Of a DNA stretch of 64,000 nt, positions 10,821 to 45,552 are shown piece after piece; positions within the stretch are counted from its first letter, which is position 1; each line of letters opens with the position of its first letter. Below the pieces are notes generated by a model that saw nothing but the letters and a program-made list of their open reading frames with translations, did no database searches and was not told the DNA's origin. The translations under genes were made by a program, and so were the position numbers. This stretch comes from an uncultured bacterium (GTDB lineage: Bacteria; Hydrothermota; Tepidihabitantia; CAYHGV01), in the NCBI GenBank assembly GCA_964356135.1, contig CAYHGV010000001.1, positions 8,179 through 72,178 of the forward strand, written 5' to 3'.

Positions 10821-11159
10821 ATGCTCTTCTTTGTTGCATGCATTGTGCTGTTTCTGATCGGTCTCTATGCGGTCATAACCAAGAAGAACCTGATCAAGAT
10901 TGCGATCGGGTTCTCGATTATGGAGTATGCGGTCAATCTGCTGTTTGCCCTGATCGGCTTCAAAAAAGGCGCAATCCCTCCGATTATAACCTCGCTCTCC
11001 GCACCGAAGAATTTTGTCGACCCTCTTCCCCAGGCACTGGTCCTGACCGCGATCGTCATCGGTTTGTGCACAACCGCACTGTTGCTTGCGATTGCCCTCC
11101 GGCTCTACCAGCGGTACAAGACATTCGATATCACCGAAATCAAAAAACTACGTGGCTGA
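10821..11159 (+). CDS. MrpC/NuoK-like small membrane subunit.
   Basis: 112 aa with 3 transmembrane helices. The reading is based on position within the Mrp gene order and on NuoK-like hydropathy. Confidence 0.7.
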   Translation: MLFFVACIVLFLIGLYAVITKKNLIKIAIGFSIMEYAVNLLFALIGFKKGAIPPIITSLSAPKNFVDPLPQALVLTAIVIGLCTTALLLAIALRLYQRYKTFDITEIKKLRG

Positions 11160-11326
11160 TAATGGAACCACAGATGCACACAGATAGACACAGATTAAAC
11201 GAAAATGAATAAGGGAAATTCTTACCGATTGACTGTAGATCGAGTACTATTTAACCATTATGGCTCGTGCGGACCGCTTCGGTCCGAGCGAGCCGAACCA
11301 TTTAACCAATTTTTGGACTGTTTTTA

Positions 11327-12823: not shown

Positions 12824-12943
12824 TATGATACCAAATACTGACCGCAGATGGACGCAGATAGACACAGATAAGAATAACACGAAGTGCTTGGTAACCGGGG
12901 GTGGTTTGTTATTTTACCGATTACCATTTAACCATTTTTTAGT

Positions 12944-13677: not shown

Positions 13678-14023
13678 ATTCTTCGGCTGGTTTTTTATCT
13701 GGCTGGGTGTGTTTTTCGACCTCTTGGGCTGTATCGGCTTGGTCCGCTTCCCGGATGTCTATAACCGGCTCCAGGCAGCGACGAAATCCGTAACCCTGGG
13801 GACCTTAGGGATCATGTTCGGGATTTTTCTCCTGCATGGTTTCAGTCCGATGGGAATCAAGGCTCTGATCTGCGGTATGTTTATCCTGTTGACCGCGCCG
13901 GTTTCAGCGCACGCGTTAGCCCGGGGTTCGCTCATCTTCCGGTCGAAGATGTGGAAAGGTTCAACGGTCGATAGGTTCGGTGAAGATAAACTCGGCGGCC
14001 CGCAAATCGAGGATAAGGAATGA
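13670..14023 (+). CDS. MrpG/MnhG-like subunit.
   Basis: A 117-aa protein with LLGCIGLVRFPDVYNRLQAATKS..LG, which resembles the MnhG family. Confidence 0.7.
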   Translation: MIKFFGWFFIWLGVFFDLLGCIGLVRFPDVYNRLQAATKSVTLGTLGIMFGIFLLHGFSPMGIKALICGMFILLTAPVSAHALARGSLIFRSKMWKGSTVDRFGEDKLGGPQIEDKE

Positions 14024-14052
14024 AACCTTTAATTGTAAGATTGAACCACAAA

Positions 14053-14073
14053 TCCGCCAAGATTCATGGCGGA
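14053..14073. promoter_or_regulatory. Palindrome TCCGCCA-N7-TGGCGGA, copy 1. Other copies lie at 14841-14861, 24802-24822 (degenerate), 35155-35175, 44244-44264 and 44316-44336.
   Basis: Read directly: 7-bp perfect inverted arms with an invariant 7-nt spacer length, in six copies, all in non-coding DNA. Confidence 0.6.
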
Positions 14074-14164
14074 CACAAAAAGCACAAAGAAGATAATTAT
14101 TTAGGTGTCAAAGAAATTTTCTTAAACTTTGTGTCCTTTGTATCCTTTGTGGTAAAAATTTCAA

Positions 14165-14773
14165 ATGAAAAAACCTAAACTCCGTGAGTTAGCCGAAGCT
14201 CTGCGGGCGATCTTCACCGGTCCCTATACCCGGAAGTTTCCCAGGGAGCCTTCACCCGCATTCCCCCGCTATCGGGGAATAATCGCCTTTGATAAAGATA
14301 AGTGTCTTGGCTGCGGCGCATGCGTTGAGGTCTGCCCGGCTTTAGCCCGGGAAATGGTCGACGATAAAAAAAAGAAAATCAGGAGGAATATCCACTATCA
14401 GGACCGGTGCGTCTACTGCGGTCAGTGTGTCGCCTACTGCACCAATAAGTATGCCATCGTTCATACGCCGGAATACGATCTGGCAAATCTCGACCGCAGC
14501 CACTACGATAATTCTATCGAATTAGAGCTGGTGATGTGCGAGGTCTGCGGAGGGGTGATAACCACCCGGAATCACCTGCGCTGGATCGCCAACAAGGTCG
14601 GTGAACTGGCGTATGCCAATCCGACGTTGATGTTAATAAAATTGGGCGAGCTGGGTTTAGTCGAGGAAACTGTACCCCGAACCGAACCCGCGCCCTACCG
14701 TTCCGACACCCAGAGATTGCTCTGCCCCCGATGCCGCCGGGAGATTCATCTCACCGAGGTATGGGGGTATTGA
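14165..14773 (+). CDS. 2x[4Fe-4S] ferredoxin subunit (NuoI/HycF/MbhN-like).
   Basis: The motifs are CLGCGACVEVCP and CVYCGQCVAYC, with extra Cys pairs (CEVCGG, CPRCRRE). The protein ends EVWGY*, and the last codons are duplicated at 18598-18630. Confidence 0.75.
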   Translation: MKKPKLRELAEALRAIFTGPYTRKFPREPSPAFPRYRGIIAFDKDKCLGCGACVEVCPALAREMVDDKKKKIRRNIHYQDRCVYCGQCVAYCTNKYAIVHTPEYDLANLDRSHYDNSIELELVMCEVCGGVITTRNHLRWIANKVGELAYANPTLMLIKLGELGLVEETVPRTEPAPYRSDTQRLLCPRCRREIHLTEVWGY

Positions 14774-14861
14774 CGTTTTTTTCCCGAGAGATAAAATAAT
14801 ACCAGCGAACTAACATAGAACTTGAATTCTGACATAACCATCCGCCACGAGGTATGGCGGA

Positions 14862-15045
14862 CACACGAAGAAACACGAACGGGCACGAAAGGAATATTGG
14901 TAGTGAGCGAAATTCAATTTTCACCAATGAGGTGGAAAACAAAGAATGGTTGGTGGCGCTTCGCTCCACCTACTCTTCGAGTTTCGTGTCAATTCGCAAT
15001 CGTTCGTGTAAATTCGTGGTTTCTTATTTTAGGACTTGGGATAAA
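14862..15045. repeat. CACGAA-box element: a left arm with several ACACGAA/GCACGAA repeats and a right arm with matching TTCGTG repeats. Related copies lie at 23800-23910, 24620-24680, 44040-44200, 16640-16700 (partial) and 14074-14140 (a CACAAA variant).
   Basis: Read directly. The copies at 23800 and 44040 share a core of about 45 nt: GAAATTCG.AGAATAGAG.GA.TG.AAGGA.CTCAAA. Their termini are inverted (TTATCACG...CGTGATAA). Confidence 0.55.
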
Positions 15046-15065
15046 ACTTTAACTACAGGAGGCAG

Positions 15066-16551
15066 TTACATGAAACGAGTTTTTTTCGGATTGGCGATAG
15101 TAGTGGTTTCGCTTTTCGCCCAGACCGCGATCGAAGGTGCCTGGGAAGGAACAATTGTCGTTCTCGAGCAAGAGCTTGCGACCACGGTCAGTTTTTCAAA
15201 ATCGGGAGATAGCCTAACCGCAACCATCGATATTCCGCAGCAGAACGCAAGCAATCTCAAACTTGAGAAGGTGAGTTTTGATGGAACCAGGGTCCATTTC
15301 GAGCTTGCTGCTCAAACCAGGGTTATTTTTGACGGTAAGCTCGATACGGGAAAGATAACCGGTGATTTTACCCAGGCAGGGTTCAAGGGAACATTCGAGC
15401 TTGCGCCAGCCAAAAGAGTGGCAACCGGACCACCGCCGTATCGGGAAGAAGAAGTTTCGATAAAAGTAAACGCAGAAGTTACTCTTGCCGGGACGCTATC
15501 GCTGCCGCCCGATTCGGCGAAGCACCGGGCGGTGATACTTATCACCGGCAGCGGCCAGCAGGATCGCGATGAAAACGTCTTCGGGTTCAAAGTGTTCAAG
15601 GTTCTGGCAGACAGTCTTACCCGCGCCGGCATCGTAGTTCTGCGTTGCGACGACCGCGGCTTCGGCAAGTCGAAGGGCGGCGAAGGAGGGTGGAACAAGA
15701 ATACCTCCCGGGATTTTGCTCAGGATGTGCTTGCCCAGGTCGATTACTTGAAGACCCGTCCGGAGGTTGATACCGTTCAGCTCGGACTGCTCGGTCACAG
15801 CGAAGGTGCGCTCATTGCCGGTATGGTTGCGGTTGCTTCTCCGAGCGTTGCTTTTGTTGTTTTAATGGCGGGGTCGGCGGTTCGCGGTGACCAACTGCTG
15901 CTTGCCCAGCTTGAAGCGGTGATGCGGGCGGATAGTGTTTCCGAGAAAAAAATCGCTCGCCAGCGTGATATCCAGCGACGGATATTTGAGTTTGCTCGCA
16001 CCGGCAAAGGCGAAGAGGCGCTGCGCAAGGATATCGGCACATTGATGCTCGCCGATATCAGCGAGCTGCCCGCGGAGCAGCGCAAGGTAATAAGTAATAC
16101 GGAAGAGATTGTGAAAAAACAGGTCGATGGCCAGATTGCGGCCGTCACCAGCCCCGGTTTTCGGTTCTTTCTCGATTACGACCCCCGGTCCGACCTCGGC
16201 CGGATGCAGACTCCGATGCTGGCACTGTTCGGGAAGTTCGATGTTCAGGTTCCGGCCGAGATGAACGCCCGGGCGATGGAGGAGACGTTCAAAAAGGCGG
16301 GGAAGATCAACTACACCATCAAGACCTGCTGCCAGGCGAATCATCTGTTCCAGTCGGCGAAGACCGGCGGTATCTCGGAATACGGCAAGCTGCCGAAAGA
16401 GTTCACTCCCTGTTTCCTGCCGACCATCATCAACTGGATTCTGGGAAAGCCGATTCCGGAGAAGTGCGAGGGGGAGCAAGGTAATCCCCACGAGGGCTGT
16501 CCGAAGGCAGAGACCGGTAACTGCGCCGGCTGCCCGTATCACCAGAAATAG
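15066..16551 (+). CDS. Secreted alpha/beta-hydrolase (GHSEG nucleophile elbow) with a Cys-rich C-terminal tail.
   Basis: There is a signal peptide (MKRVFFGLAIVVVSLFAQTAIEG), then GLLGHSEGALIAG (GxSxG) with later Asp and His. The ORF track begins at 14854, but that upstream stretch is a repeat element and not coding. Confidence 0.7.
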
Positions 16552-16595
16552 ATTCGGGTTGTTATATTGAAATTTGTAAATGCGAATTAAAGAAA

Positions 16596-16625
16596 CCAAC
16601 AGGTTTTATTTTACACCTGTTTGGT
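16596..16625 (+). terminator. Hairpin (ACCAACAGGT...ACCTGTTTGGT) followed by a weak T-tract, lying 45 nt after the hydrolase stop.
   Basis: Inverted repeat read directly. Its core AACAGGT/ACCTGTT is the same palindrome found at 16797 and 18767. Confidence 0.4.
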
Positions 16626-16796
16626 GAATTTCGGAGTTGCTTAATTCTAAAATTCCCTTCGTGCCTATTCGGGTCTCTTCGTGTCAATTCGTGGTTAAGA
16701 CTGGATTCGGGTTGAACTAAGGATACTGAGTAGGTTCTCCAAGCGTTTTTTTGTCATTGCGCGCAATCTCAAGTGTAAATATCTCAAGACGATTGT

Positions 16797-16818
16797 AGCA
16801 ACAGGTCTTTAGACCTGT
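16797..16818. promoter_or_regulatory. Near-perfect 20-bp palindrome AACAGGTCTTTAGACCTGTT, about 75 bp upstream of the -35 box of the 16952 operon. A degenerate second copy lies at 18767-18788, upstream of the HNH gene.
   Basis: Read directly. Both copies sit within a conserved ~40-nt context (TGTAG.AACAGGTCTTT(T)AGAC.TGT...). Confidence 0.5.
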
Positions 16819-16951
16819 TGATGAGTTTGTAGGGTTAGAACGCGTCGCCAACTTTGTTTAATTTCACTAGGCTGTGCGTCGTCTTGACAAAAAGAGAAAA
16901 ATGGGTTATTAGTTAGTATGGGGTTAAAAGAAGGCCTGCCGAGAGGCGAAT

Positions 16952-17389: not shown

Positions 17390-18461
17390 AATTGAGCCCC
17401 AAGACTTGGTCATTCATATCCTCAATGTCGGTTTCGGTGATACGATCCTGATCGGATTTCCAGCTCAGAACCTGAGCGCGCGGGCATACGGCTTGGTCGA
17501 TTGTAACGATGCCCGGAAGACGCTCGGCTATTTAAATAATTTGATACCGAAGCCAACCGAGAGGAAGCATCTGGCGTTTGTCTGTGCCACCCACCCGCAT
17601 ATGGACCATATCAGCGGTATCCAGGAAGTGCTTAAAGACCCTACGTATAAACCGTCTGAGTTCTGGGACAGCGGTTTCCGGCATAATTCACTCACTTATC
17701 GGGATAGCTTACTTGCAGTTTCAAGTGAAGGGATTAAGATGATTCAGGTTTCTTCAGGAATGGAATGGTATTTTGGCAGTGTTCGGATAACGGTATTGTC
17801 GCCGTCGGTGGCGCTTCGTAACCGATATGCGACCTATGGTGTTGATATGAATAACGCTTCGGTCGTTCTCCGGCTTGAGCATCACAGCGATGATATTTTG
17901 CTCACGACCTCGAGAGAATATAGCGGTAAGGCAAGCGAGGCGGTGGAACGGAATGCCGGTCAGTCGGTCGTTATACTCGCGGGTGACGCAGAATTCGACA
18001 GTTGGGCACAGATAGCTCAGGATTTTCCCAGGCTCGAACGGACGAGCGGTCATGACCCGCTCGTGAAGAAGATGATTAACTACCTCGCATGTTCGGCGGT
18101 GAAGGTTGCACATCACGGCAGCATGCACAGCGCACCCCTCGATATATATGAAAAGATGAAGCCCCAAACCGCAATTATATCGACCAAACAGGAAGTTAGT
18201 ACGAAACGAGGAACGGAGCAGGACTTACGTCGAGGATTATTTCCTCATTCCGCAACTACCATTGCCTTAGAAGAGTGCGATGCTCGGGTATTGACGACCG
18301 ACGGTAGTCATGAAGGGGAAGAAATCGGCGGCAAAATGAGGGCGCAGGAATTGAGCCATGAGGGGAGTGTCATACTGGTGGTGCCGCCGGCAGGCAAACT
18401 GCGCTGGTGCAAGCTCAATGATAAAGCCGATGAGATTCCTGAGCCGCCGACCGAGGTCTAA
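17373..18461 (+). CDS. Metallo-beta-lactamase-fold hydrolase of the ComEC/Rec2 type.
   Basis: ILNVGFGDTILI...VDCNDA...ATHPHMDHISG (HxHxDH)...VKVAHHGS are characteristic of the ComEC-type MBL domain. There is no membrane domain. Confidence 0.75.
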   Translation: MMSRVRIEPQDLVIHILNVGFGDTILIGFPAQNLSARAYGLVDCNDARKTLGYLNNLIPKPTERKHLAFVCATHPHMDHISGIQEVLKDPTYKPSEFWDSGFRHNSLTYRDSLLAVSSEGIKMIQVSSGMEWYFGSVRITVLSPSVALRNRYATYGVDMNNASVVLRLEHHSDDILLTTSREYSGKASEAVERNAGQSVVILAGDAEFDSWAQIAQDFPRLERTSGHDPLVKKMINYLACSAVKVAHHGSMHSAPLDIYEKMKPQTAIISTKQEVSTKRGTEQDLRRGLFPHSATTIALEECDARVLTTDGSHEGEEIGGKMRAQELSHEGSVILVVPPAGKLRWCKLNDKADEIPEPPTEV

Positions 18462-18836
18462 ATATGGACTGCGACTCATTTATTTAGAGATTTGATTCCA
18501 CTTTTGCGAAAAAGTGAAACAGGGAAGCTGAAAGTACAGAGGGCGGTGATGTAGGATGGTTCAGCATCAGCGATTATTGTATCCTCCGCTACCGGAGCGA
18601 AATTCACCTAACCCAGGTATGGGGGTATTAGGTTTCCGAGTTTGATAATTTTGAGTAAGGTAGCGGTGCGCTCGGACTGCTACAGTCCGCTATCGCACAC
18701 AGTAAAAGCAAATCTTGGTTTTTTCTCTTTCGTTAGGCGGTGGGAACTCTTCCAGAAAGCTGTAGAAACAGGTCTTTTAGACTTGTAGATTGTTTTGGGT
18801 ATCGTTTGGCTTGACAAATCTCCGATTCAAGGGTAA

Positions 18837-19616
18837 ATGTTACCTATGGAGGCTGAAGTAAAAGCTCCAAAAGAAGAAAAAGAAAACTGGTCAGAGCAAG
18901 AACTCGTTGTCGCCTTTAATTTGTACTGCAAGCTTCCTTTTGGTCAGTATCATAAACACAATAAAAAGGTAATTGAAATTGCTAAAATTCTTGGAAGAAC
19001 ACCGAGTGCGGTTGCGCTAAAATTATGTAATTTTGCAAGACTCGACCCGGTTCATCAAAAGCGTGGTATCAGGGGAATGAAACACGGGAGCAAACTTGAT
19101 GAGAAAATCTGGAATGAATTCAATCAAAACTGGGGTGGACTTTCATATCAGAGTGAAATTGCACTTGCCCAATTAAAAGGTCTTAAACATTACGGTTTGA
19201 TAAAAGACACGGAGAAGTTTCCCCCAGGTAAAGAAAAAGAAGCACTTGTTAAGGCGAGGATAAATCAGAATTTTTTTCGTGAGATGATATTGGCAGGTTA
19301 CAGAAATAGGTGCGCGATATGTTCTTTACCTGAAGTAAATTTATTAGTGGCTAGCCATATTATACCATGGTCTGAGAATGCGGATTTACGAATGAATCCA
19401 AGAAACGGAATTTGTATGTGTGTTTTACATGATAAAGCTTTCGATAAGGGTTTAATCACGATCAATGGTGATTATAAATTATTACTTTCGAAAATACTCA
19501 AAAGACTTTCTAAAGAACCAGCTATTCAAAGGGGATTCATTTTTTACGAGAGTTTTAAAATAAGACTACCTGATAAATTTATTGAATTCCATCGAAATGA
19601 GGTATTTATCGGATGA
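18837..19616 (+). CDS. HNH endonuclease-domain protein (restriction-enzyme-like HNH_2 type) with an N-terminal domain of unknown function.
   Basis: C-terminal RCAICSL...LVASHIIPWS...NGICMCVLHDKAFDKG (Cys pair plus the H-N-H core). Confidence 0.7.
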   Translation: MLPMEAEVKAPKEEKENWSEQELVVAFNLYCKLPFGQYHKHNKKVIEIAKILGRTPSAVALKLCNFARLDPVHQKRGIRGMKHGSKLDEKIWNEFNQNWGGLSYQSEIALAQLKGLKHYGLIKDTEKFPPGKEKEALVKARINQNFFREMILAGYRNRCAICSLPEVNLLVASHIIPWSENADLRMNPRNGICMCVLHDKAFDKGLITINGDYKLLLSKILKRLSKEPAIQRGFIFYESFKIRLPDKFIEFHRNEVFIG

Positions 19617-19763
19617 TAATCAGTACTTAACAATTCGATGCTGATTGAAGAGGAAGATATGAGGCAAGGTGGTCTTGACGAGATGTTGTTTTTAATTACA
19701 CTTATATCTAAGGAAACAAGTAATGAATTCCTATGCCTGTCGAAATGATTTCAAAGGATTATT

Positions 19764-20771
19764 ATGACAAAATTTGAGGTTAACCTGAACGAGAAATTTG
19801 CTTTGATTGCTGTCAGTACGTATGTTGACCGTGAATTACCATCTGAAAGACAGTATGCTCATGACCTTTGGGCAGTAAAGCTGCTACCTATCGGTGTCGG
19901 TAATCTCTGGGAGAAATGGCTGGGAAGTATCCTGATGGATCGATTAAAAAAAAGCAGTTTGTTTTTTATTGCCAAAGGCCCTTCGACCAATCCGGAACTT
20001 CTTGATGGAGACAACAAGAAATATATGAATCGAGTTTTTAATTTTTATAGGGGTTTGTTACTAAGTGGATTTCATATCGTAGATTCACCTATTCAATTAA
20101 CAGGGGTCAATAATGACCAAATAATAGATGTCCGAGAGATTGGCGAGCTTCCGAATCCTCGTTCTATCAGTGGTGAACATAACCAAAATGTCGATTCCAT
20201 ACAACTTATAGATGCTGCAAAGGTTGCCGATGCCATCAGGGATTTGCCAGGTCGAGGGAAGCTCTCGCGGTTTAAACGGATTTTGAATGCCTTTTTAGGC
20301 GGTATTGAAAGTTATTATGTGGAAGACAAAATTCATCAATTCTGTCGATGTATCGAAGGTTTCATCTACCCAGAGGTAGGGAAGACAAAGAGCCGATTCT
20401 GTTCACGAACTGAGTTGTTTCTCGGCCCACGCAATCATACGCTGATGGATCATTTGTATGATATTCGCAGTGCGGTAGAGCATATGCATAACCCACTGGA
20501 TGCAATTAGTGGCAGAAGTGGGAAGGAAAAGCGTCTTCTACTGTTACAGCGAAGCATCGAGGCAGAAGCGGTCGCTCGCTATTGCATTCGTCATCTGTTG
20601 CTGAATCGAAATTTATGGCAATATTTTGAAAATGAAAGCACACTAAATGACTTTTGGAAGAATAAGACAAATGCTGAACGGCAAAATATTTGGGGTGAGC
20701 CGTTTGATATCGGTGCTGTCTCAACCGGGTTCGATCCTACTATTTATAATGATGCGGACCTTGGTTTTTAA
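19764..20771 (+). CDS. Hypothetical protein with an Rx4H motif (RSAVEH); possibly a HEPN-like abortive-infection or RNase-type effector.
   Basis: The ORF contains YDIRSAVEHMHN (Rx4H), lies between the HNH and methyltransferase genes, and has lower GC than the flanking core genes. Confidence 0.45.
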   Translation: MTKFEVNLNEKFALIAVSTYVDRELPSERQYAHDLWAVKLLPIGVGNLWEKWLGSILMDRLKKSSLFFIAKGPSTNPELLDGDNKKYMNRVFNFYRGLLLSGFHIVDSPIQLTGVNNDQIIDVREIGELPNPRSISGEHNQNVDSIQLIDAAKVADAIRDLPGRGKLSRFKRILNAFLGGIESYYVEDKIHQFCRCIEGFIYPEVGKTKSRFCSRTELFLGPRNHTLMDHLYDIRSAVEHMHNPLDAISGRSGKEKRLLLLQRSIEAEAVARYCIRHLLLNRNLWQYFENESTLNDFWKNKTNAERQNIWGEPFDIGAVSTGFDPTIYNDADLGF

Positions 20772-20836
20772 AGGGAGCTTAGTAGGTGAGGGTGAAGAGT
20801 AAATGGATAATTTTGTGAATATTGAATTTAATAGGA

Positions 20837-22120
20837 ATGAATACATTACATAAAATAATCATCGGGGATTCGAGGGTAATGAAAGAGGTGGTGGATGAGT
20901 CGGTTCATCTGATCGTTACCTCTCCGCCTTACTGGCAGCTTAAGGATTATGGCAATGGGAAGCAGATAGGGTTTAATGATACCTACGAGGAATATATCAA
21001 TAATCTCAATCTTGTCTGGAATGAATGCCATCGGGTTCTGCATAAGGGCTGTCGTTTGTGTGTGAATATCGGCGACCAATTTGCCCGTTCGGTTTATTAT
21101 GGAAGATATAAGGTTATTCCAATAAGAACTGAAATAATCAAGTTTTGCGAAACGGCCGGTTTTGATTATATGGGTGCAATCATCTGGCAGAAGGTGACGA
21201 CCTGTCACACTACCGGCGGAGCAACGGTGATGGGTTCTTTTCCTTATCCAAGAAGTGGAATTCTTAAGCTTGATTATGAGTTTATTTTAATTTTAAAAAA
21301 ATATGGGGGTGGTCCGAAAGTTGGCAAAGAAGTCAAAGAACAATCGAGGTTAACACAAGAGGAATGGAATCAGTATTTTACTGGCCACTGGAATTTTGCC
21401 GGTGAAAAGCAGGATAAACACCTGGCGATGTTCCCGGAAGAACTGCCGAGGCGGCTTATCAAGATGTTTAGCTTTGTCGGAGATACCGTTTTAGACCCAT
21501 TTCTCGGCAGCGGCACGACCTCTTTAGCTGCTAAAAAGCTGAATCGTAATTCTATCGGCTACGAAATAAACGGCAGTTTTCTCAAAGTCATTAAAGAAAA
21601 GTTGGAAATAAGGCAGGGGTTAATCTTTCAAAACTCTCAATCTGAGATAATCGAGCAAGCGAAGTCTAAAACAGATTTCGCTGAAAGGATAAAAAGACTG
21701 CCCTATATCTTTAAGGACCCGATTAAATTCGATAAAATGGTTGACCCAAGAAAGTTAAAATTTGGCTCAAAGATTGATAATACCCATGCTGAACGGGAAA
21801 AGTATTATACGGTTAAAGAGATTGTCAGCCCGGAAATACTGGTTTTAAGCAACGGTTTAAAAATCAGGTTGATTGGAATAAGAGCGAAATCGGCAAAGAA
21901 TGAAGAAGCGATTCAATTTTTAAGAGAAAAAACCCGAGGGCAAAGGGTATTTATGAGGTTCGACGCTGTCAAATATGACGATAAAAATAACTTGTTGTGT
22001 TATTTGTACTTATGGAATAAAACCTTCATAAATGCTCACCTGATTAAAAATGGTCTGGTTGATGTCGATACGACTTTTGACTATAAATATAAGGCAAAAT
22101 TTTTATCGAAAGGAATGTAA
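20837..22120 (+). CDS. Beta-class DNA methyltransferase (N4-cytosine or N6-adenine) with a C-terminal degenerate SNase/OB-like domain.
   Basis: Motif IV (IVTSPPY) precedes motif I (VLDPFLGSGTT), which gives the beta-class order. The C-terminal ~150 aa fit the thermonuclease fold pattern (KIRLIGI...VFMRFD...NAHLIKNGLVDVD) but lack the DGD and D-PE catalytic residues. The ORF track begins at TTG 20822. Confidence 0.8.
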   Translation: MNTLHKIIIGDSRVMKEVVDESVHLIVTSPPYWQLKDYGNGKQIGFNDTYEEYINNLNLVWNECHRVLHKGCRLCVNIGDQFARSVYYGRYKVIPIRTEIIKFCETAGFDYMGAIIWQKVTTCHTTGGATVMGSFPYPRSGILKLDYEFILILKKYGGGPKVGKEVKEQSRLTQEEWNQYFTGHWNFAGEKQDKHLAMFPEELPRRLIKMFSFVGDTVLDPFLGSGTTSLAAKKLNRNSIGYEINGSFLKVIKEKLEIRQGLIFQNSQSEIIEQAKSKTDFAERIKRLPYIFKDPIKFDKMVDPRKLKFGSKIDNTHAEREKYYTVKEIVSPEILVLSNGLKIRLIGIRAKSAKNEEAIQFLREKTRGQRVFMRFDAVKYDDKNNLLCYLYLWNKTFINAHLIKNGLVDVDTTFDYKYKAKFLSKGM

Positions 22121-22122
22121 TA

Positions 22123-22827
22123 ATGCCAAAGGAATGGATAAAAGGCGTTGAGGGCTGCGCTCTAAAGTTCAAAAGAGAGGGTTTGTTAAACGCTGCGATG
22201 AACCGTTGGGGTCTTAATAAGGCGCACAGCGTTGATACGACTTCAGAACTGATACGACAATGTTCTCCTCGATCTTTTGCAGAATGGGAAAGGTTTTATT
22301 TTAGCAATGCGAAACAAAAGAAGCGGGACGGGGTTAGGATTACAAAAAAATATTTGAAAGATTTAGGAAGGAAGCTCTATATTAAATTAACGGAAGTTGT
22401 TCAGAGTGAAATAGAATCTATTACAGAGGAAGAATGCATAGATTATGTTTTTAATCTTGTATTGAATCGAACATTTGAGGGTTATCGGTCTGAAATCCGG
22501 ACCGTTTATGGACAATTGCAGGATGCCTTGGGAGTCAGTGTCGAACCCGCTCCCGATGAGTGGGATCGGGGTTATAATGTGGATTTTTTCATTAAGGTTA
22601 AGGATAAATACATTGGCCTTCAGATCAAGCCCGCAGGATTCGCTTACATTCCGCAAATCATTAATGAATTGGGGTTTCAGAAAAAGACCCATGAAAAATT
22701 TATTGCTAAATATGGTGGTAAAGTATTCTATATAATTTCAGTCAAGGAGGGTAAACAGAAAAAAATCCATAATACCGAAGTTATTGAAAAAATTAGGAAA
22801 GAGATTCAGAGGTTGGAAAAATTATAA
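22123..22827 (+). CDS. Hypothetical protein; candidate PD-(D/E)xK-type restriction endonuclease partner of the adjacent methyltransferase.
   Basis: It begins 3 nt after the methyltransferase stop, is 234 aa, and contains GYNVDFFIKVKDKYIGLQIKP, which may be a D...K/ExK-like core. There is no firm family match. Confidence 0.4.
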   Translation: MPKEWIKGVEGCALKFKREGLLNAAMNRWGLNKAHSVDTTSELIRQCSPRSFAEWERFYFSNAKQKKRDGVRITKKYLKDLGRKLYIKLTEVVQSEIESITEEECIDYVFNLVLNRTFEGYRSEIRTVYGQLQDALGVSVEPAPDEWDRGYNVDFFIKVKDKYIGLQIKPAGFAYIPQIINELGFQKKTHEKFIAKYGGKVFYIISVKEGKQKKIHNTEVIEKIRKEIQRLEKL

Positions 22828-22892
22828 TATTACCACTTCGCTTAGGGAGGTATAGCGGGTTACAAAGCCCTCAACCAAAAGGAGGCTATTCT

Positions 22893-23768
22893 ATGGTCAG
22901 AATTAAGCTGGTAGCCGTTGTGCTAATTTTACTGCTCAATGCCGGGTTGTGTGCCAAGCCGGCTCAGGATATTTCGGTGATAACCAAGCAGTTGGAGAAA
23001 TACGACTTGACCGATGTCAATTCGATCGGGACGGCGCTGGAGTTTGTCAAGAGTACCATCAACCGGTTGTCGCCGGCAGACCGGGATTCGGCGTTTTTCG
23101 CATTCTCCACCTTTTACTATACGACCATGAATGAGTTTAATGAAAAACAACTCTGGAGTAACGATAGTCTTACGAATAAGCTCTATGCCGATACGCTCAA
23201 TACTGACCCGGCAGTAAAGGCGCTCAAGCAGAAACTGGCAGCCAACGGCCTCGGTCTCTATATGACCGAAGGCAATTACTATGTCGATGCCCTGCCCGAT
23301 TACCTGTACGATAACTTTTCGCGCTCGGTTTCTCCTTCGGTTAAGGAATTTCTTCGAATCAGAAAAGGCGAACTGGCAGCCGGTTTCTCGGAGGATGCCG
23401 GTCTGGTAATCAGTTTCGAGGAGTTGGGGAAACGGGTCATTGCCTGGGAAAATTTTATTGATACCTTCCCCGATTCCCCATTAGTCGGCGAAGCAAAATC
23501 GAACTGGGATTTATATCTGTCAACCTTGCTCTCGGGAATGGACAATTCGAGGATTTTTGATTTTGACAGCAACCAGTTGATACCGGCAGTAAAGCAAGTC
23601 TATAATACCTTCCTTGAGAAATATCCGCAAACCAGGAGCGGGAAATTAATAGCAAAATTCTATAACTTCCTGAAAGAAAATAATTTCGAATATTCGGAGG
23701 CGGTGGAGGAGTTTTATGAAACAAATAAAATCCATTCAATGTTAGGAGTCCAGCCGCCGACGCGATAG
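22893..23768 (+). CDS. Secreted hypothetical protein.
   Basis: N-terminal signal peptide (MVRIKLVAVVLILLLNAGLCA); 291 aa. Confidence 0.5.
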   Translation: MVRIKLVAVVLILLLNAGLCAKPAQDISVITKQLEKYDLTDVNSIGTALEFVKSTINRLSPADRDSAFFAFSTFYYTTMNEFNEKQLWSNDSLTNKLYADTLNTDPAVKALKQKLAANGLGLYMTEGNYYVDALPDYLYDNFSRSVSPSVKEFLRIRKGELAAGFSEDAGLVISFEELGKRVIAWENFIDTFPDSPLVGEAKSNWDLYLSTLLSGMDNSRIFDFDSNQLIPAVKQVYNTFLEKYPQTRSGKLIAKFYNFLKENNFEYSEAVEEFYETNKIHSMLGVQPPTR

Positions 23769-23995
23769 CCGGACAAATTTGAGTAAGAAAAAGATTTCAT
23801 CACGAAAGTTATGAAATCACGAAAACACGAAATTCGTAGAATAGAGCGACTGGAAGGAGCTCAAATTCGCCAAGAAGTATTGCTGATTTCGTGGTAATTT
23901 TTATACTCGTCAGGGCTGTCCTTGAGCACTTGACAATCGACTTTTAAAGGGCACAATGGATTAATGAAACCACAAATAAAAAATTTTAAGGAGGT

Positions 23996-24592
23996 ATGAA
24001 AATGAAACTACGGTTCATAACAGCTGCGCTCCTCTTGGTCGGTTTGGTTTTCTTCGCCGGCTGCGGCGGCAGCAAAGCAAAACAGGAACAGTCGGCAACA
24101 CCGAAACCGGAGATACTCGAGATGCCGGCGCAAACGATGGCGGTGGCTTACACGAAAGGCGACCCGAATATGGTCGCCGGGCAGGCAGCGGCGGCGCTTT
24201 ACGCCTCGGTTTCGGCTTTGAGCGGTGAGCTTAAAAAGAAAGGTATCGATTTCCCGGTCGGAGTTTTGCGTGCACGCTGGCCGGATGTCGCGGGTACACC
24301 GAAAGACCAGTGGACCGGTATCTGGGGGCTGCCGATTCCGGATGATGTCGATTCGATTCCCAAAAAAGTTCCGGGCGTGGATGTTACGATCGAACGGTGG
24401 AACTACGGCACGATCGCGCAGATTCTCCACATCGGGCCCTATGATGCTGAACCGGCTACGATCCAGCGGTTGATGGATTTTATTGCCAAATCGGGATACG
24501 AAATCGCAGGCAGTCACGAAGAAGAATATCTGACGCCACCCGGGGTTCCGGAACAAAAGACGATGATTCGGTATCCGGTCCGAAAGAAGTAG
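23996..24592 (+). CDS. Lipoprotein with a GyrI-like small-molecule-binding domain.
   Basis: AAGGAGG ribosome-binding site, lipobox FFAGCGG, and a C-terminal HIGPYDAEPATIQRLMDFIAKSGYEIAGSHEEEYLT stretch typical of the GyrI-like fold. Confidence 0.6.
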   Translation: MKMKLRFITAALLLVGLVFFAGCGGSKAKQEQSATPKPEILEMPAQTMAVAYTKGDPNMVAGQAAAALYASVSALSGELKKKGIDFPVGVLRARWPDVAGTPKDQWTGIWGLPIPDDVDSIPKKVPGVDVTIERWNYGTIAQILHIGPYDAEPATIQRLMDFIAKSGYEIAGSHEEEYLTPPGVPEQKTMIRYPVRKK

Positions 24593-24885
24593 GATAATGT
24601 AAACTCGAATCCAGACGTAACCACGAATGGGCACGAAGAGAAACGAAGTAACACGAACGCCTCGTTTCGAGGCGAAATATTAGACTTGAAATGCGAAGCA
24701 TAAGTGGAGTGAAACGATACCTGCAAAACCCGATATTGACTAAATAGGTGAAAAATAAAAAATATTTTTCTTTAATTCGCAATCATTCGAGTAATCTGTC
24801 ACTCGCCATACAGAGTGGCGGGTAAGGCGGACGTGGTTTTTTATCGCTGGATTGAGGGTAAATAATAATTAAGGAGGTGTTGAAT

Positions 24886-31959: not shown

Positions 31960-32094
31960 TTACTATAAATTCTAAATTCGAAGTTCGAAATTCGAAACAA
32001 GCACGCATAATCAAAATACAAAATTCAAAACTGCACTATTCAAATTTTGAGCACTTAGAATTTGGGTATTGTTCTGAATTGAACAGAGCGAGAA

Positions 32095-35078: not shown

Positions 35079-35206
35079 GCATACTATAAAAACCACGGAA
35101 TACACTGAAAGCACTGAACAACAGATTCGGATAGTTCATTATTTTCCTTCCGTGTCCGCCATAGATCGTGGCGGATCCGTGGTTACATTATTTGTCCGGG
35201 GACTTG

Positions 35207-36607
35207 ATGGCTAACATCGTTCCGAAAAAGACCGCGATGCGGGAACAGCCGGCCCAGGAACGGGTCAAAAACTTCGAAGAGGTTCCGTACGGCTACAGCC
35301 CGGAGGAGGCAATATTCGAAGCCAAGCGGTGTCTGTTGTGCAAGCGGTCAACCTGTATTGGAGGCTGTCCGGTAGAAATTGATATTCCCGGTTTTATTCA
35401 ATTGATTGCCGAAGGGGATTTCAAAGGCGCGATCAAGAAATTGAAGGAAAAGAATGTCCTGCCGGCGGTGTGCGGGCGGGTCTGTCCGCAGGAGGACCAG
35501 TGTGAAAAGGTCTGCGCCCTGGCAAAAAAATTCGAACCGGTTGCCATTGGTCGATTAGAACGATTCGCCGCGGACTGGGAAGCTGCCCAGGGCGAGTCGC
35601 CCGTTCCTGAAAAGCCGGCCCCCACCGGGAAAAAGGCGGCGGTGATCGGCGCAGGTCCGGGCGGTTTGACGGTTGCCGGCGATTTAATCCGACTCGGACA
35701 TGCAGTAACTATTTTCGAAGCTCTGCACAAACCGGGCGGGGTGCTGGTGTATGGCATCCCCGAATTCCGTCTGCCCAAGGCGATCGTCTACCGGGAAGTA
35801 GATTACCTCGTTCGGTCCGGGGCGAAGCTCGTCCTCGATTTTGTCGTCGGCAAAACGGCGACGATTGACCAGCTGTTAAAAGAATTCGACGCGGTCTATA
35901 TCGGTACCGGTGCCGGCCTTCCCTGGTTTATGAATATTCCGGGTGAAAACCTGAACGGAGTCTATTCGGCAAATGAATACCTGACCCGCTCCAATTTGAT
36001 GAAAGCCTATCTCTTTCCGGAGTATGATACTCCGATTGTGCGCGGAAAGAATGTCGCAGTGGTCGGCGGCGGAAATGTAGCGATGGACTGTGCTCGGACG
36101 GGATTGCGGCTCGGTGCGGATGAAGTCCGGATAGTCTATCGCCGCTCGAAAACCGAGATGCCGGCTCGGATCGAGGAGATTCACCATGCGGAAGGAGAAG
36201 GAATAATCTTTGAATGGTTAACGTTACCGGTGAAATACTTCGGCGATGAAAAAGGCTGGATCAAGAGGATGGAGTGCATCAAGATGGAGCTGGGTGAGCC
36301 CGATTCATCGGGTCGAAGAAGGCCGGTGCCGATTGAAGGTTCCAATTTCATAACCGAGGTGGATACGGTGGTGTGTGCAATCGGCCAGAGTCCTAATCCA
36401 CTCATTCCCCAAACGACTCCGGATTTGAAGATTGGCAAATGGGGTAATATTGAAGTTGATCCAAAGACCAACCGCACGGCTAAAAAGGGTTGCTTTGCCG
36501 GTGGTGATGTTGTGCGGGGTGGGGCGACGGTGATTCTGGCAATGGGTGATGCCCGAGTCGCGGCGCGGTCAATGGATGAGTATATGAGAACCGGTATCTG
36601 GAAATAG
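35207..36607 (+). CDS. NfnB/SudA/GltD-like NAD(P)H-dependent FAD oxidoreductase with an N-terminal 2x[4Fe-4S] domain.
   Basis: CLLCKRSTCIGGCP and CGRVCPQEDQCEKVC motifs. The dinucleotide-binding sites are AAVIGAGPGG and VAVVGGGNVAMDCART. The ORF track begins at GTG 35168, inside a palindrome; the ATG at 35207 is the more likely start. Confidence 0.85.
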   Translation: MANIVPKKTAMREQPAQERVKNFEEVPYGYSPEEAIFEAKRCLLCKRSTCIGGCPVEIDIPGFIQLIAEGDFKGAIKKLKEKNVLPAVCGRVCPQEDQCEKVCALAKKFEPVAIGRLERFAADWEAAQGESPVPEKPAPTGKKAAVIGAGPGGLTVAGDLIRLGHAVTIFEALHKPGGVLVYGIPEFRLPKAIVYREVDYLVRSGAKLVLDFVVGKTATIDQLLKEFDAVYIGTGAGLPWFMNIPGENLNGVYSANEYLTRSNLMKAYLFPEYDTPIVRGKNVAVVGGGNVAMDCARTGLRLGADEVRIVYRRSKTEMPARIEEIHHAEGEGIIFEWLTLPVKYFGDEKGWIKRMECIKMELGEPDSSGRRRPVPIEGSNFITEVDTVVCAIGQSPNPLIPQTTPDLKIGKWGNIEVDPKTNRTAKKGCFAGGDVVRGGATVILAMGDARVAARSMDEYMRTGIWK

Positions 36608-36707: not shown

Positions 36708-37826
36708 CTACGATCCTCCTGCCCGTCCGGAATTCCTGTTATCGCGGCGGAATTTAGGCCAGGGACTCGAGGCGAGGGTGCCTGACCCGACCAGAGCGTA
36801 GAGGTAACTATCATACGAGCCGACATAGACGGTTCCATCCAGACCGAGAGCTGGTGACGACCAGATTTCATCGCCCGTTTTGTGTTTCCATTTCAGGCTG
36901 CCATCCGATTTGAGTGCATAGAGGTAGGTATCGCCGGACCCGACATAGATGGTGCCATCCGAACCGACCGCCGGTGATGACCAGATCGAACCACCGGTCG
37001 CATATTTCCACTTGAGCGTGCCGGTCGGGTTTATTGCATACAGGCAGTTATCCTCAGAGCCGACATAGATGGTTCCATCCGGACCAATCGAAGGAGCAGA
37101 CCAGATCCCTTTGCCGGTTGCGAAGCTCCATTGTAAGGTGCTGTCCGGGTTGAGCGCATAGAGGTTTTTATCCTCCGAGCCGAAATAGATGGTTCCAGCC
37201 GAGCCGATTGCGGGCGAAGAGATCAACTTATCGCCGGTTTGATATCGCCATTTCAAGTATCCGTCGGGCTGAAGGGCATAGAGACAGCTGTCCTCGGAGC
37301 AAAAATAAATTGTTCCATCCGAACCGATTGCCGGCGAAGACCGTATCCAGCCATTGGTTCTGAATTTCCATTTGGGACTCCCATCACCGGCTATGGCATA
37401 GAGGGCGTTATCAAGTGAGCCGAAATAGACGGTGCCGTCAGGACCGAGGGCGGGCGATGAACGGACCCAGCCGCCGGTTTTGTATTTCCATTTCAGTGTG
37501 CCGTTGGGGTTGAGCGCATAGAGGTAATCATCATCCGAACCGATATAAATCGTTCCATCCGGTCCGATGAGCGGAGAAGAGACGATCGAATAGTTTGTCC
37601 CGTATTCCCATAGTTTATTTCCGTCAGCCTTCAGTGCATAGAACTTGGAATTGATCGAGCCCACATAGACCGATCCATCGGGCGCGATTGCGGGAGATGA
37701 CGAAACCTGCCCGACTGTCCAGAATCTCCACTTCAGCTTCGATGATTTTTCCGTGCAGCCGAACATAAAAACTCCTGCCATCAAGATTCCGATGCAGGAG
37801 CCAACGAACAATTTATGCCTCAACAC
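36708..37826 (-). CDS. Lipoprotein with about 8 PQQ-like beta-propeller repeats (BamB-like fold).
   Basis: Lipobox MFGCTEK, then repeats of the form G.LKWKY.TGG.I.SSPA.G.DGTIY.GS.D..LYA. Confidence 0.75.
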   Translation of the reverse strand: MLRHKLFVGSCIGILMAGVFMFGCTEKSSKLKWRFWTVGQVSSSPAIAPDGSVYVGSINSKFYALKADGNKLWEYGTNYSIVSSPLIGPDGTIYIGSDDDYLYALNPNGTLKWKYKTGGWVRSSPALGPDGTVYFGSLDNALYAIAGDGSPKWKFRTNGWIRSSPAIGSDGTIYFCSEDSCLYALQPDGYLKWRYQTGDKLISSPAIGSAGTIYFGSEDKNLYALNPDSTLQWSFATGKGIWSAPSIGPDGTIYVGSEDNCLYAINPTGTLKWKYATGGSIWSSPAVGSDGTIYVGSGDTYLYALKSDGSLKWKHKTGDEIWSSPALGLDGTVYVGSYDSYLYALVGSGTLASSPWPKFRRDNRNSGRAGGS

Positions 37827-41838: not shown

Positions 41839-41992
41839 TTAGGAGTTAGGAGACATCAGTAAGATGCAGTGTATCCGCGTTATTCAGTGTCAAACTCCGT
41901 GGTTATCTGCGTTTTCGATAAAGTTGTGGGATTTTCTACTTCGTGAGACATAGATGTCGAAGAAACAGGAAGTTGAGTTTCAACATTGAGGG

Positions 41993-43978: not shown

Positions 43979-44470
43979 AGATGAGAGTAACGGTTTTTAT
44001 CACAACTGTCAAGTTAAGCCATTGAGAGCTCTGCGAAACTACAAAAATTATCACGAAAGCACGAAAGGACGAAATTCGAAGAATAGAGTGATTGCAAGGA
44101 ACTCAAAGCCACGAAAAAATAAGCGTAGTATTTTCAAAAAGTTAGAACCTTTCGTGTTTTCCGGATTTCGTGGTTCACGTGATAAAAAGGACTTTTTCAG
44201 GGGTCTCCCATTAGAACTATGATTAACCACAGAAGACACTGAATCCGCCATAGTGCGTGGCGGAACGGAAGGGTAATTGTTTGTATTTCATTATAATTAT
44301 TCGGTGAGTTCCGTGTCCGCCATGTTGCGTGGCGGATCAGTGGTTAAAAATGATTTTTCCAGGGTGGCCATTTGTTTCGCAGCGTGTAGCAGAAGCAAGA
44401 ATCTACGAGTTCGTATAATCAGTCTTATCAGGACTGGATAAAAATCAGGTCTGTCCCGTGCAACGAGGGA

Positions 44471-45151
44471 TTACTTAAAAACTATAACCTTCTTCACGCT
44501 CCTTAACTTTCCGGCAGTAAGGTTGATAAAATAGACCCCCTGCGCATTACCGGTCATATCCAGTTGGAGATGATAATTTCCGCGTTCCTGCACGCCATCC
44601 GCCAGCCTCTTGATTTCTCGTCCGGCTATATCGTAGACGCTTAATGCAACCTCACCTCTTGCAGGTATTTGATAGCTGATTGTCGTTGTCGTGGAGGTTG
44701 GATTTTGACCAAGACGCAGATTTGGACTCTCTACTGTGAGATTTGAATTTTCCTCCACACCTCCTTCCGGACCTAATCTGATGAGATAAACATCAGCCCC
44801 ACCTGCCCCGTAAGAAGTAGTCATGCCTGCGATGATATAACCGCCATCATCGGTCTGCACCACTGAATTGCCCCTATCTCCACCACTGCCGCCACAGGCT
44901 TTTGTCCAGAGTGTATCGCCATTGGCATCAGTCCTGATGAGATAAACATCACCACTACCTTTGGTGTAATACCCGATCATACCCGCTATAATATATCCAC
45001 CATCACCCGTCTGCGCCACTGAATGGCCTGCATCCCAATCACCGCCGCCATATGTTTTTGTCCAGAGCGTATCTGGTGGTTGGGCAGGTACCGTGTTCGG
45101 AAATAGCACTGCTACCATTACCACTAAACCTAATATTTTTATTCTCTTCAT
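44471..45151 (-). CDS. Secreted beta-propeller-repeat protein with a type IX secretion C-terminal sorting domain. It is a paralogue of 49403..50392.
   Basis: Signal peptide MKRIKILGLVVMVAVLF. Repeats of the form DTLWTKTYGG..D.G.SV.QT.DGGYIIAG. A C-terminal NPTSTTTTISYQIP...GVYFINL...KKVIVFK, which is typical of the T9SS sorting domain. The ORF track extends to 45328, but that stretch is unlikely to be coding. Confidence 0.7.
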   Translation of the reverse strand: MKRIKILGLVVMVAVLFPNTVPAQPPDTLWTKTYGGGDWDAGHSVAQTGDGGYIIAGMIGYYTKGSGDVYLIRTDANGDTLWTKACGGSGGDRGNSVVQTDDGGYIIAGMTTSYGAGGADVYLIRLGPEGGVEENSNLTVESPNLRLGQNPTSTTTTISYQIPARGEVALSVYDIAGREIKRLADGVQERGNYHLQLDMTGNAQGVYFINLTAGKLRSVKKVIVFK

Positions 45152-45552
45152 TTTTCCTCCATGTTTTTGCTCATTTTGGTTATTGCCCATTAAGTGCGGT
45201 GTTCCCCTGAGACCTTCCTTTGAATCCTCTGTTTGGGACAAACCATCATCACCGATACTTGTTCTGTAACCCATATAATTCCTTGCCTTACGACAAATTA
45301 AGCCGTAAAGCGGTTTTGCCAAGCACAATATTTGGTAGGTTTTTCAATGGCTTTTTTATAACTTCCTGGTTATAGACGGCTACCTCAACCTCAACCGGTA
45401 AGTCTTTTTACGGAATATTTGACATAGTGCGAATCGAGCCCTAGATTAGAGCGCAGGACGTCAAATAGATTACCTACAATTTAATGAGAAAATTCTCAGG
45501 AACTTTTTCCGAGTTGTGGCTTCAGCGCAATCTTAAATCTGTCAATTAAATT

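Follow-up and report, generated by a model that had tools for sequence, protein, structure and literature searches.

What are the arrays of the hexamer CACGAA and its reverse complement TTCGTG that recur between the genes of an uncultured WOR-3 bacterium? The question was raised by a window of 64,000 nt (contig CAYHGV010000001.1 of assembly GCA_964356135.1, positions 8,179 to 72,178 of the forward strand; coordinates below are counted from the first letter of this window), in which an initial annotation had singled out a potential hairpin at 14862–15045, close to the start of a hydrolase gene, as one of six related loci. All six loci exist as described. We consider it moderately probable that the copies in the window are gene-less, partly decayed derivatives, resembling miniature inverted-repeat transposable elements (MITEs), of a class of elements with palindromic arms and a nuclease gene that occurs across phyla and has expanded in this WOR-3 lineage.

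The flagged element, referred to in the following as E2, is complete and is built as follows (fold z values are relative to shuffled sequence; matrix scores are explained below):

14836–15021, no strand assigned: complete element E2; RNA fold −68.2 kcal/mol, z = −5.0.
14836–14840: AACCA cap.
14841–14861, no strand assigned: nested mini-hairpin TCCGCCA-N7-TGGCGGA, containing the ATG (14854) that over-extends the hydrolase open reading frame (ORF).
14864–14889, plus strand: left array, three CACGAA boxes at an exact 10-bp spacing (14864, 14874, 14884); matrix score 5.4 bits.
14890–14982: loop of 93 nt.
14983–15021, minus strand: right array, TTCGTG (14983), TTCGCA (14993), TTCGTG (15003) and TTCGTG (15013), closed by a GTT cap at 15019–15021; matrix score 17.4 bits.

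The two hexamers together are not enriched in the 64-kb window (39 occurrences versus 38.3 ± 5.9 in shuffles); the signal lies in their clustering in intergenic regions and in their phasing. Boxes on the same strand are predominantly spaced by 10, 20 or 30 bp (14864–14889, 14983–15018, 16658–16693 and 24622–24657) or by 8 bp (23818–23831 and 44052–44073). A word-independent search for tandem 8–11-mers found nine arrays in the window, compared to 0–2 (mean 0.3) in each of 20 shuffles, and eight of the nine were intergenic and composed of CAC-type words. When all intergenic regions were read, every copy was located between ORFs. Counting all box variants, there are about 11 loci in the 64 kb, so that the initial estimate of about one per 10 kb was too low. 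The elements are 100–240 bp long and contain no ORF, and almost all of them start with AAC-CAC and end with GTG-GTT.

Arrays on both sides had been ascribed to all six loci. Both arms were seen at four of them (14864–14889/14983–15018; 14047–14088/14128–14151, with CACAAA and TTTGTG; 23801–23831/23888; and 44052–44073/44151–44172), whereas at 16658–16693 only the TTCGTG arm is intact and at 24622–24657 the partner is degenerate. The predicted long imperfect hairpins were likewise recovered in most cases: across all loci, most were more stable than their shuffles (z between −2.9 and −6.4; −4.3, −5.0, −2.9 and −3.7 at four of the originally named loci), the exception being 44047–44176 (E6 below), which folds weakly (z = −1.4).

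The copies at 23.8 and 44.05 kb do share a near-identical core, with 85–87% identity over 39–48 nt. This 45-nt core occurs only twice in the window and not at all among about 330 loci fetched from other sequences, and therefore does not define the family. The initial annotation had proposed recurrence of the core elsewhere in the genome as a test, which would have misled, because the core is private to two copies and the arms are what recur. The arms correspond to no catalogued RNA: Rfam in gathering mode returned no matches in the whole window, for 13950–16950 the E-value mode gave nothing but weak chance matches, and nine strong loci from other phyla matched generic microRNA-hairpin models only, below threshold. 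The window contains no tRNA, tmRNA or rRNA genes. We found no description of such arrays in the literature searched, in which six 16-mers of the consensus were likewise unmatched.

The family is not confined to this genome, and its arms occur in many phyla. We searched contigs of one genome per species for the triple-box pattern CACGAA-N4-CACGAA-N4-CACGAA, taking phyla from the record titles. At least 120 loci matched, compared to about 17 expected by chance (our own estimate, for 596 Gb of uniform composition). The matches listed span at least 12 phyla by record title, and we therefore call the class cross-phylum. They include Chloroflexota, Verrucomicrobiota, Acidobacteriota, Planctomycetota, Kiritimatiellota, Hydrogenedentota, Bacillota (Heliobacteriaceae), several proteobacterial classes and Bacteroidota, as well as one contig titled Thermoplasmata archaeon, and many lie on contigs of 0.5–2.9 Mb. 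The 155 arrays among these matches, once oriented, have the flank t-T-t-A-(A/T)-C followed by the units CACGAAT-g-n-A, CACGAAT-n-n-a and CACGAA, with exactly three boxes in most arrays. The outer boundary is sharp, with C at −1 in 136 of 155 arrays and A at −3 in 110 of 155; position −2 is A in 63 and T in 56, and an ATC cap is nearly as frequent as AAC. The consensus can be written as AAC followed by three CACnAATrrA units, usually mirrored as ATTnGTG-GTT. Of 159 arrays among the matches listed, 103 had an inverted partner on their inner side, with loops of 1–461 nt.

The organism was placed in WOR-3 by the names that Fer4 homologues bear and by a T9SS (type IX secretion) sorting domain. Within WOR-3 the distribution is patchy. 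We found no arrays in 37 kb of contigs from other WOR-3 genomes (65–67% protein identity). In a closer relative, contig L123 (90% identity), two intergenic positions that carry elements in the window are occupied as well, which suggests that the family expanded within this WOR-3 lineage and was then inherited.

Matches to the triple-box pattern are frequent in viral contigs, too, and are heterogeneous there: a partner array was present in only 27 of 142, and many are other repeats. One contig labelled viral (L219, IMG/VR UViG_3300044838_000141), which may be true viral sequence or host DNA, carries five same-strand AAC-CACGAAT arrays in 13 kb, and contigs of giant-virus metagenome-assembled genomes (MAGs; GVMAG loci L218 and L225) match the pattern as well. 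A Nitrosomonas MAG (L035 1–3420, JALRCN010000002.1) has a cassette-like arrangement of at least 10 same-orientation elements separating RelB/RelE-like, DUF4160/DUF2442-like and GxxExxY genes. Its left arms read CACTAAT and its right arms ATTCGTG, giving a fixed mismatch in every unit, and the locus also has five tandem "empty" elements with CGCTAAT/ATTCGCG.

To find a gene associated with the arms, we clustered all ORFs within 1.5 kb of the arrays at 120 loci among the matches listed. No transposase or integrase family recurred there, and the only small recurrent ORF family was GxxExxY. Hairpins with loops of 376–403 nt each contain a GxxExxY ORF, matching TIGR04256 at 1.9e-40 and PF13366 (PDDEXK_3) at 6e-41. 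A search of PDB sequences with a broad GxxExxY alignment gave no match. The function of the family is listed as unknown, and multiple transfers between bacterial divisions and archaea have been described (PMC3424549).

In the reverse test, metagenomic loci were fetched by similarity to the GxxExxY protein. A left array was present in 62 of 75 loci, a right array in 67 of 73 and both in 54 of 68, with three boxes in about 88%. The bracketed gene encodes about 125 aa, and the fit between arms and gene is tight: the last left unit includes the start codon (CACGA-ATG-GA), the stop codon abuts the first right unit, and the right array starts 0–7 nt past the stop in most of these arm-plus-gene modules. 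The ORF was intact in 75 of 80 loci, with a median dN/dS of 0.07, showing strong purifying selection. Since loci selected for their CACGAA arrays supplied the query, this close association has been demonstrated for a single subfamily only. Arms that closely bracket a small nuclease gene suggest a selfish DNA element not described before.

The window was then scored with a weight matrix derived from 119 module arms, for which 30 shuffles reached a maximum of −3.1 bits. The matrix recognized the following window arrays, which we therefore place in the family:

16664–16699, minus strand: 33.1 bits.
24616–24651, plus strand: 25.0 bits.
14989–15024, minus strand: 17.4 bits.
11163–11198, plus strand: 13.6 bits.
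14858–14893, plus strand: 5.4 bits.

Modules are present or absent at the same place in related genomes. We compared the junction between an ATP-citrate-lyase-like gene (aclA) and an HD-domain gene, which was found in four states. The junction is empty in L328, with a 17-nt gap. In L331 and L332 it holds a module in sense, and the array provides the stop codon of the host protein, which then ends in SLTTN. In the L144 group the module is antisense and accompanied by an extra gene, and in L330 there is just a solo left array, after which synteny breaks off. Among 120 homologues of the host protein, array-encoded and array-free tails both occur at about 90% identity. A flank-to-flank BLAST within the fetched loci had yielded no empty sites; these were found later via the host-protein homologues.

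Several observations weigh against the reading of the window copies as derivatives of this class. The units in the window deviate from the consensus (CACGAA(A/G), CACAAA, CACAGAT, CACTGAA), and some are phased at 8–9 bp. The gene association comes from one subfamily, only about five of 85 hairpins among the matches listed from the genome sample carry the gene, and tblastn detected no GxxExxY homologue in the 64-kb window. No GxxExxY gene was present in 120 viral loci either, the viral matches being heterogeneous. We know of no demonstrated transposase or homing activity of a GxxExxY protein. E2 itself is conserved above the neutral rate (89% versus 67.5%, see below), which could mean a host function independent of mobility. 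Finally, a target-site duplication, which the initial annotation had suggested looking for at the copy boundaries, was seen neither in the module loci nor in the filled and empty pair L331/L328: there was no consistent direct repeat outside the AAC/GTT caps and no clean insertion scar, although the lineages compared are about 10% diverged and a very short duplication could be masked. A TTGAA duplication in L128 was rejected, as it did not recur in other loci. The proposal that the family is MITE-like thus holds in so far as the copies are short, gene-less and multi-copy, have inverted arms, include three pairs that are alike beyond the arms, and have gene-carrying relatives elsewhere; it does not hold for the target-site duplication, and the gene is no known transposase.

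The arms themselves were examined for signs of a selected stem. In 85 hairpins among the matches listed, box complementarity was 83–100% for the two outer units and lower for the third, innermost one; the first spacer was about 57% complementary and the second 27–36%, which is the chance level. In 46 distinct modules, both arms have their mismatches concentrated at positions 4, 8 and 9 of the unit, with no compensation; sense-strand G·U (51) and A·C (42) mismatches are balanced, alongside 87 transversions. As mismatches in the two arms do not covary, the boxes resemble phased sites for a protein more than a simple stem; the pattern is that of a repeated sequence motif and not of selected pairing. 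From the recurrence of the motif C-A-C-n-A-A-T-r-r-A once per helical turn, we infer phased protein binding, for which the element's own nuclease would be the obvious candidate.

In full-length relatives, arms of about three tandem 10-bp units directly bracket the gene, and this module is present or absent at a given host gene junction. The phased units might be bound by an element-encoded protein, most plausibly the GxxExxY nuclease acting in trans, and the two inverted triplets would then define the ends on which this protein acts; the nuclease would thereby account for mobility. Transcribed arms would give an imperfect stem of about 30 bp, which could be cut or could stabilize the mRNA, as in rRNA intervening sequences. 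The window copies are best taken as MITE-like or solo-arm derivatives, now in intercistronic or 3′ positions and mixed with a nested mini-hairpin repeat, and at least the copy at 14836–15021 may have been co-opted by the host. A bolder reading, which we hold to be less likely than not, is that inverted triple-decamer arms together with a GxxExxY gene of the PD-(D/E)XK type constitute an undescribed selfish-element family of many bacterial phyla, in which the nuclease would act in mobilization or homing and the far more numerous gene-less hairpins would be non-autonomous derivatives, in parallel to REPIN/RAYT but with another enzyme fold.

Besides E2, the window contains the following elements:

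14044–14153, no strand assigned: E1, the CACAAA/TTTGTG variant; AAC-CACAAA, mini-hairpin at 14053–14073, CACAAA twice, loop, then TTTGTG/TTTGTA/TTTGTG-GTA; fold z = −4.3.
16575–16715, minus strand: E3, a shorter homologue of E5 in opposite orientation; array TTCGTG/TTCGGG/TTCGTG/TTCGTG-GTT at 16658–16696, with 33.1 bits the best matrix score in the window; the other arm is a single decayed box at about 16581–16590.
23796–23896, no strand assigned: E4, of the 8-bp-phase subfamily; CACGAA at 23801, 23818 and 23826, core at about 23826–23865, TTCGTG-GTA at 23888–23896; fold z = −2.9.
24601–24838, plus strand: E5; AAC cap at 24619–24621, boxes at 24622, 24632, 24642 (AACGAA) and 24652; fold z = −3.7; matrix score 25.0 bits.
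44047–44175, no strand assigned: E6, a homologue of E4; boxes at 44052, 44060, 44068 (GACGAA) and 44110, core at 44069–44107, TTCGTG at 44151 and 44167, then GTT; fold z = −1.4.
44225–44345, no strand assigned: E7, a homologue of E10; AAC-CACAGAA-GA-CACTGAA, mini-hairpin at 44244–44264, loop, TTCCGTG, mini-hairpin at 44316–44336, TCAGTG-GTT; fold z = −6.4.
35091–35184, no strand assigned: E10; AAC-CACGGAA/CACTGAA twice, loop, TTCCGTG, mini-hairpin at 35155–35175, TCCGTG-GTT; fold z = −3.3.
11166–11198, plus strand: E8, a solo array; AAC and three CACAGAT at a 10-bp phase, with no inverted partner; matrix score 13.6 bits.
12840–12906, plus strand: E9, an array; CGCAGAT, CGCAGAT and CACAGAT at a 10-bp phase (12840–12872), with a possible decayed partner ending in GGTGGTT.
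41880–41905, minus strand, which is the gene strand: E11, a solo array after the metRS stop; AAC-CACGGA…CACTGAA.

Inverted box arrays are thus present in E1, E2, E4, E6, E7 and E10. E4 and E6 (8-bp phase), E1, E7 and E10 were assigned to the family by architecture only, and E11, the weakest member, was assigned by eye and not scored. The right boxes of E5 are degenerate (TTCGCA at 24776, TTCGAG at 24786), and its true outer stem is AACCACG/CGTGGTT at 24619/24832 (CGTGGTT at 24832–24838). Two of the elements bear on gene calls. E10 overlaps the nominal GTG start (35168) of ORF 35168–36607; since this start lies inside the mini-hairpin and GTGGTT cap (35155–35184) and Pfam matches begin only at residue 32, the ORF, like that of the hydrolase, has probably been called too long. 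An in-frame TGA at 11156–11158, a few bases before E8, was read as the stop of an mnhC-like gene, which the ORF list runs on to 11212.

Self-comparison of the window showed that three pairs (E3/E5, E4/E6 and E7/E10) are homologous beyond the boxes. E3, which is inverted and shorter, has 81–85% identity to E5, and the similarity reaches about 20 nt beyond the cap. The internal regions are otherwise mostly unrelated between copies. GC-rich mini-hairpins of 17–21 nt were found as well, always positioned between two box units. One of them, TCCGCCA-N7-TGGCGGA, has five exact copies in the window (14053–14073, 14841–14861, 35155–35175, 44244–44264 and 44316–44336), compared to 0.3 expected. Another, CGCCTCGTTTCGAGGCG (CGCCTCG-TTT-CGAGGCG), occurs once, inserted in E5 at 24658–24674, and is missing from E3; likewise, one of the E7 mini-hairpins has no counterpart at the same place in E10. 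Since an element may have a mini-hairpin that its homologue lacks, the elements are mosaics, and judging from their placement, the mini-hairpins look like a second, nested repeat family, as if independently inserted.

The hydrolase ORF had been suspected of being over-extended by the flagged copy, and this proved to be the case. A public protein cluster includes the 565-aa version (P0241), whereas the best homologues have 482–507 aa and align to 98–100% of a 493-aa form that starts at 15070, behind AGGAGG. The protein collection contained no close hydrolase orthologue with which the comparison of E2 could be extended, the next best match being 57% identical. Between the window and L123, the Fer4 coding sequence is 83.9% identical and fourfold-degenerate sites are 67.5% identical (54/80), compared to 89.1% (179/201) for the Fer4–hydrolase spacer including the left arm and loop of E2; the three left boxes are unchanged (27/27 positions), and the nested mini-hairpin is replaced by a different hairpin, TCGCCTCGAAACGAGGCG. 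One-nucleotide indels between the window and L123 show that the spacer is non-coding. E2 thus appears to be constrained, and this one copy may have a use to the host, although the constraint cannot be attributed to E2 alone because the whole spacer is conserved. The mnhG–Fer4 element, at the position of E1, is at neutral level (64%): L123 has an array hairpin there with other words, CGCAGAA and TCCGCG/TCCGTG. The short-read Logan contigs L001 and L002 (ERR3804377/8), from the same organism, stop inside E2. The contig of the relative, L123, ends at 1236–1290, where 33 nt of the element are duplicated in tandem.

These results also bear on the possibility that the copies are RNA stem-loops beneficial to the host, comparable to repetitive extragenic palindromic (REP) sequences and bacterial interspersed mosaic elements (BIMEs), and serving as RNase III processing sites, 3′ exonuclease barriers or translational insulators, so that the similarity between copies would reflect function rather than mobility. 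We regard this as unlikely, though it is the strongest of the alternatives. Most copies fold better than shuffles and lie between co-directional genes, including some inside the mnh operon, and E2 exceeds its fourfold-site benchmark with indels that exclude coding. Modules were never found in divergent promoter regions (0/37) and had the orientation of the upstream gene in 42 of 57 cases, and the roughly 30-bp arms match the 28-bp stem of the Coxiella intervening sequence that is cleaved by RNase III (PMC4990558). Against this, there was no covariation and the inner spacers pair at chance; G·U on the sense strand is not in excess over A·C; the homologous E3 and E5 are opposite in orientation relative to genes; arrays are absent from the 37 kb of other WOR-3 contigs; and the orthologous mnhG–Fer4 element has diverged to neutral level. 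The "small structured RNAs" of the initial annotation are accordingly supported by good folds and by one copy above neutral conservation, and opposed by the lack of covariation, of a strand-specific G·U signal and of an Rfam match, and by homologous copies in both orientations.

Phased binding might also mean operator arrays for a host DNA-binding protein, such as a regulator or a nucleoid protein that contacts one unit at each turn of the helix. Direct repeats of 10–11 bp are bound in this manner by MraZ and ParR-type proteins. The 10-bp spacing, the conserved C-A-C-n-A-A-T-r-r-A with its uncompensated degenerate positions, and the fully conserved E2 boxes in L123 would all fit. However, units in at least 12 phyla, in a Thermoplasmata-titled contig and in viral contigs would be unexpected for a single host regulator. 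Moreover, the units occur in close association with a single small mobile gene, their presence is lineage-specific within WOR-3, and the flanking genes are functionally unrelated. We consider this explanation improbable.

A third explanation, which we rate as highly improbable, is that the elements are integron-type attC recombination sites marking gene-cassette boundaries. The AAC…GTT outer boundaries recall the conserved triplets of R″ and R′, and the Nitrosomonas locus described above has at least 10 same-orientation elements separating small toxin–antitoxin-like genes and a GxxExxY gene. However, the arm units are direct repeats instead of inverted R/L box pairs, ATC caps are nearly as common as AAC caps among the matches listed, no integrase family recurred within 1.5 kb of the arrays at the 120 loci listed, and the window copies lie between housekeeping genes (mnh, Fer4, hydrolase, metRS). 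The attC reading was rejected on the arm architecture and the absence of a linked integrase. Intrinsic terminators or chance low-complexity sequence are scarcely credible: the hairpins do follow stop codons and a few are then T-rich (e.g., CGTGGTTTTTT at 24832), but terminator-like sites are not enriched (21 versus 16.1 ± 4.9 in shuffles), none occurs on the sense strand at the elements, for which reasons the terminator reading was rejected, and copies lie inside an operon, while chance is excluded by the array-finder, mini-hairpin and weight-matrix results relative to shuffles or expectation.

Some other features of the window were recorded. A motif, CCATTTAACCA(A/T)TTTTT, occurs at 11296–11316 and 12921–12941, just upstream of mnh-operon starts at 11327 and 12944, and could be a translation or processing signal. 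GC content is low at 18000–24000 (0.41) and 58000–60000 (0.36), compared to about 0.50–0.55 elsewhere; the first of these stretches, which has E4 and E5 at its right edge, may be acquired DNA. AT-rich intergenic sequences at 31960–32094 and 51804–51968 have inverted words of the AAATTC(T/G)AA and GAATTT type and may represent another hairpin-repeat family. The paralogous genes at 44472–45328 and 49404–50559 have internal repeats and are 68–81% identical to each other, one with a confirmed Por_Secre_tail domain of the type IX secretion system (T9SS), and 54-nt flanks of the two (44393–44446 and 50625–50678) are 85% identical. In a gene-poor, low-GC region, segments are duplicated at 56721–56982 and 57702–57963 (262 nt, 87%) and at 57541–57655 and 58050–58164 (115 nt, 76%). 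A tandem periodicity of about 120 nt (67–71% identity) at 36793–37590 lies inside the minus-strand ORF 36708–37826, which encodes a repeat protein.

The arrays have practical consequences for annotation and assembly. In MAGs they create spurious or over-extended ORFs (in this window at 14854 and 35168), and in other genomes they give false C-terminal tails such as SLTTNEHK. They also mark breaks in synteny (L330), and short-read assemblies seem to be interrupted by them, as in L001 and L002, whose ends fall within E2.

Among known systems, the closest parallels are REP doublets and their tyrosine transposases (REPIN/RAYT), MITEs and ORF-bearing rRNA intervening sequences, and the family departs from each of these, and from attC, in the features that define them. 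An attC site consists of R″–L″ and L′–R′ box pairs, inverted within each arm, with conserved AAC/GTT. Like attC sites, the elements are imperfect palindromes of 60–140 bp bounded by AAC/GTT, and they can separate small accessory genes; unlike them, they have direct-repeat arms and no linked integrase and are dispersed among core genes. The BIMEs and the nested small dispersed repeats of cyanobacteria resemble them in their mosaic build, with a second repeat inserted between units, and differ in sequence and host phylum. We know of no mobilizing enzyme for BIMEs, for the nested cyanobacterial repeats or for the present elements.

The intervening sequence of Coxiella 23S rRNA carries an S23p four-helix-bundle ORF, reported to be decaying, within a stem cut by RNase III (PMC4990558). 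It shares with the modules a small ORF bracketed by stem-forming terminal inverted repeats of about 28–30 bp, and both are regarded as selfish and horizontally acquired. The present elements lie in intergenic regions of mRNA rather than in rRNA helices (helix 9, 25 or 45 for intervening sequences), in a window without rRNA, and their ORF family is GxxExxY, under strong purifying selection. With MITEs (PMC3184786) the window copies have in common their small size, lack of an ORF, terminal inverted repeats and intergenic location, as well as internal sequence shared by several copies and longer relatives that carry a gene between the same ends. They differ in that no target-site duplication was found, the ends are multi-unit and the internal regions are mostly unrelated. 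Gene-carrying modules with the same arms, which would correspond to the autonomous partner of a MITE, exist elsewhere, but their gene is GxxExxY, not a recognized transposase, and none lies in the 64-kb window.

REP sequences are species-specific, whereas the unit sequence described here is common to many phyla, which is unusual for bacterial intergenic repeats. The REP unit is a single palindrome of 20–40 bp, often tagged GTAG or CGTC (PMC3733652); each of the present arms consists instead of three 10-bp units in tandem, capped by AAC or ATC, and the gene is a PD-(D/E)XK GxxExxY and not a Y1/HUH RAYT. The likeness to REPIN/RAYT (Bertels & Rainey 2011, PMC3116915) is that both are short, multi-copy extragenic palindromes whose inverted doublets form hairpins, that gene-less copies outnumber a small repeat-flanked gene, and that both are proposed as non-autonomous mobile DNA. 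If the link to the nuclease is true, PF13366/TIGR04256, a large and widely transferred family whose function is listed as unknown (PMC3424549), would gain a role, and the elements would provide a second example, beside REP/RAYT, of a palindromic repeat paired, as a domesticated or selfish system, with its own enzyme, in this case on a nuclease fold.

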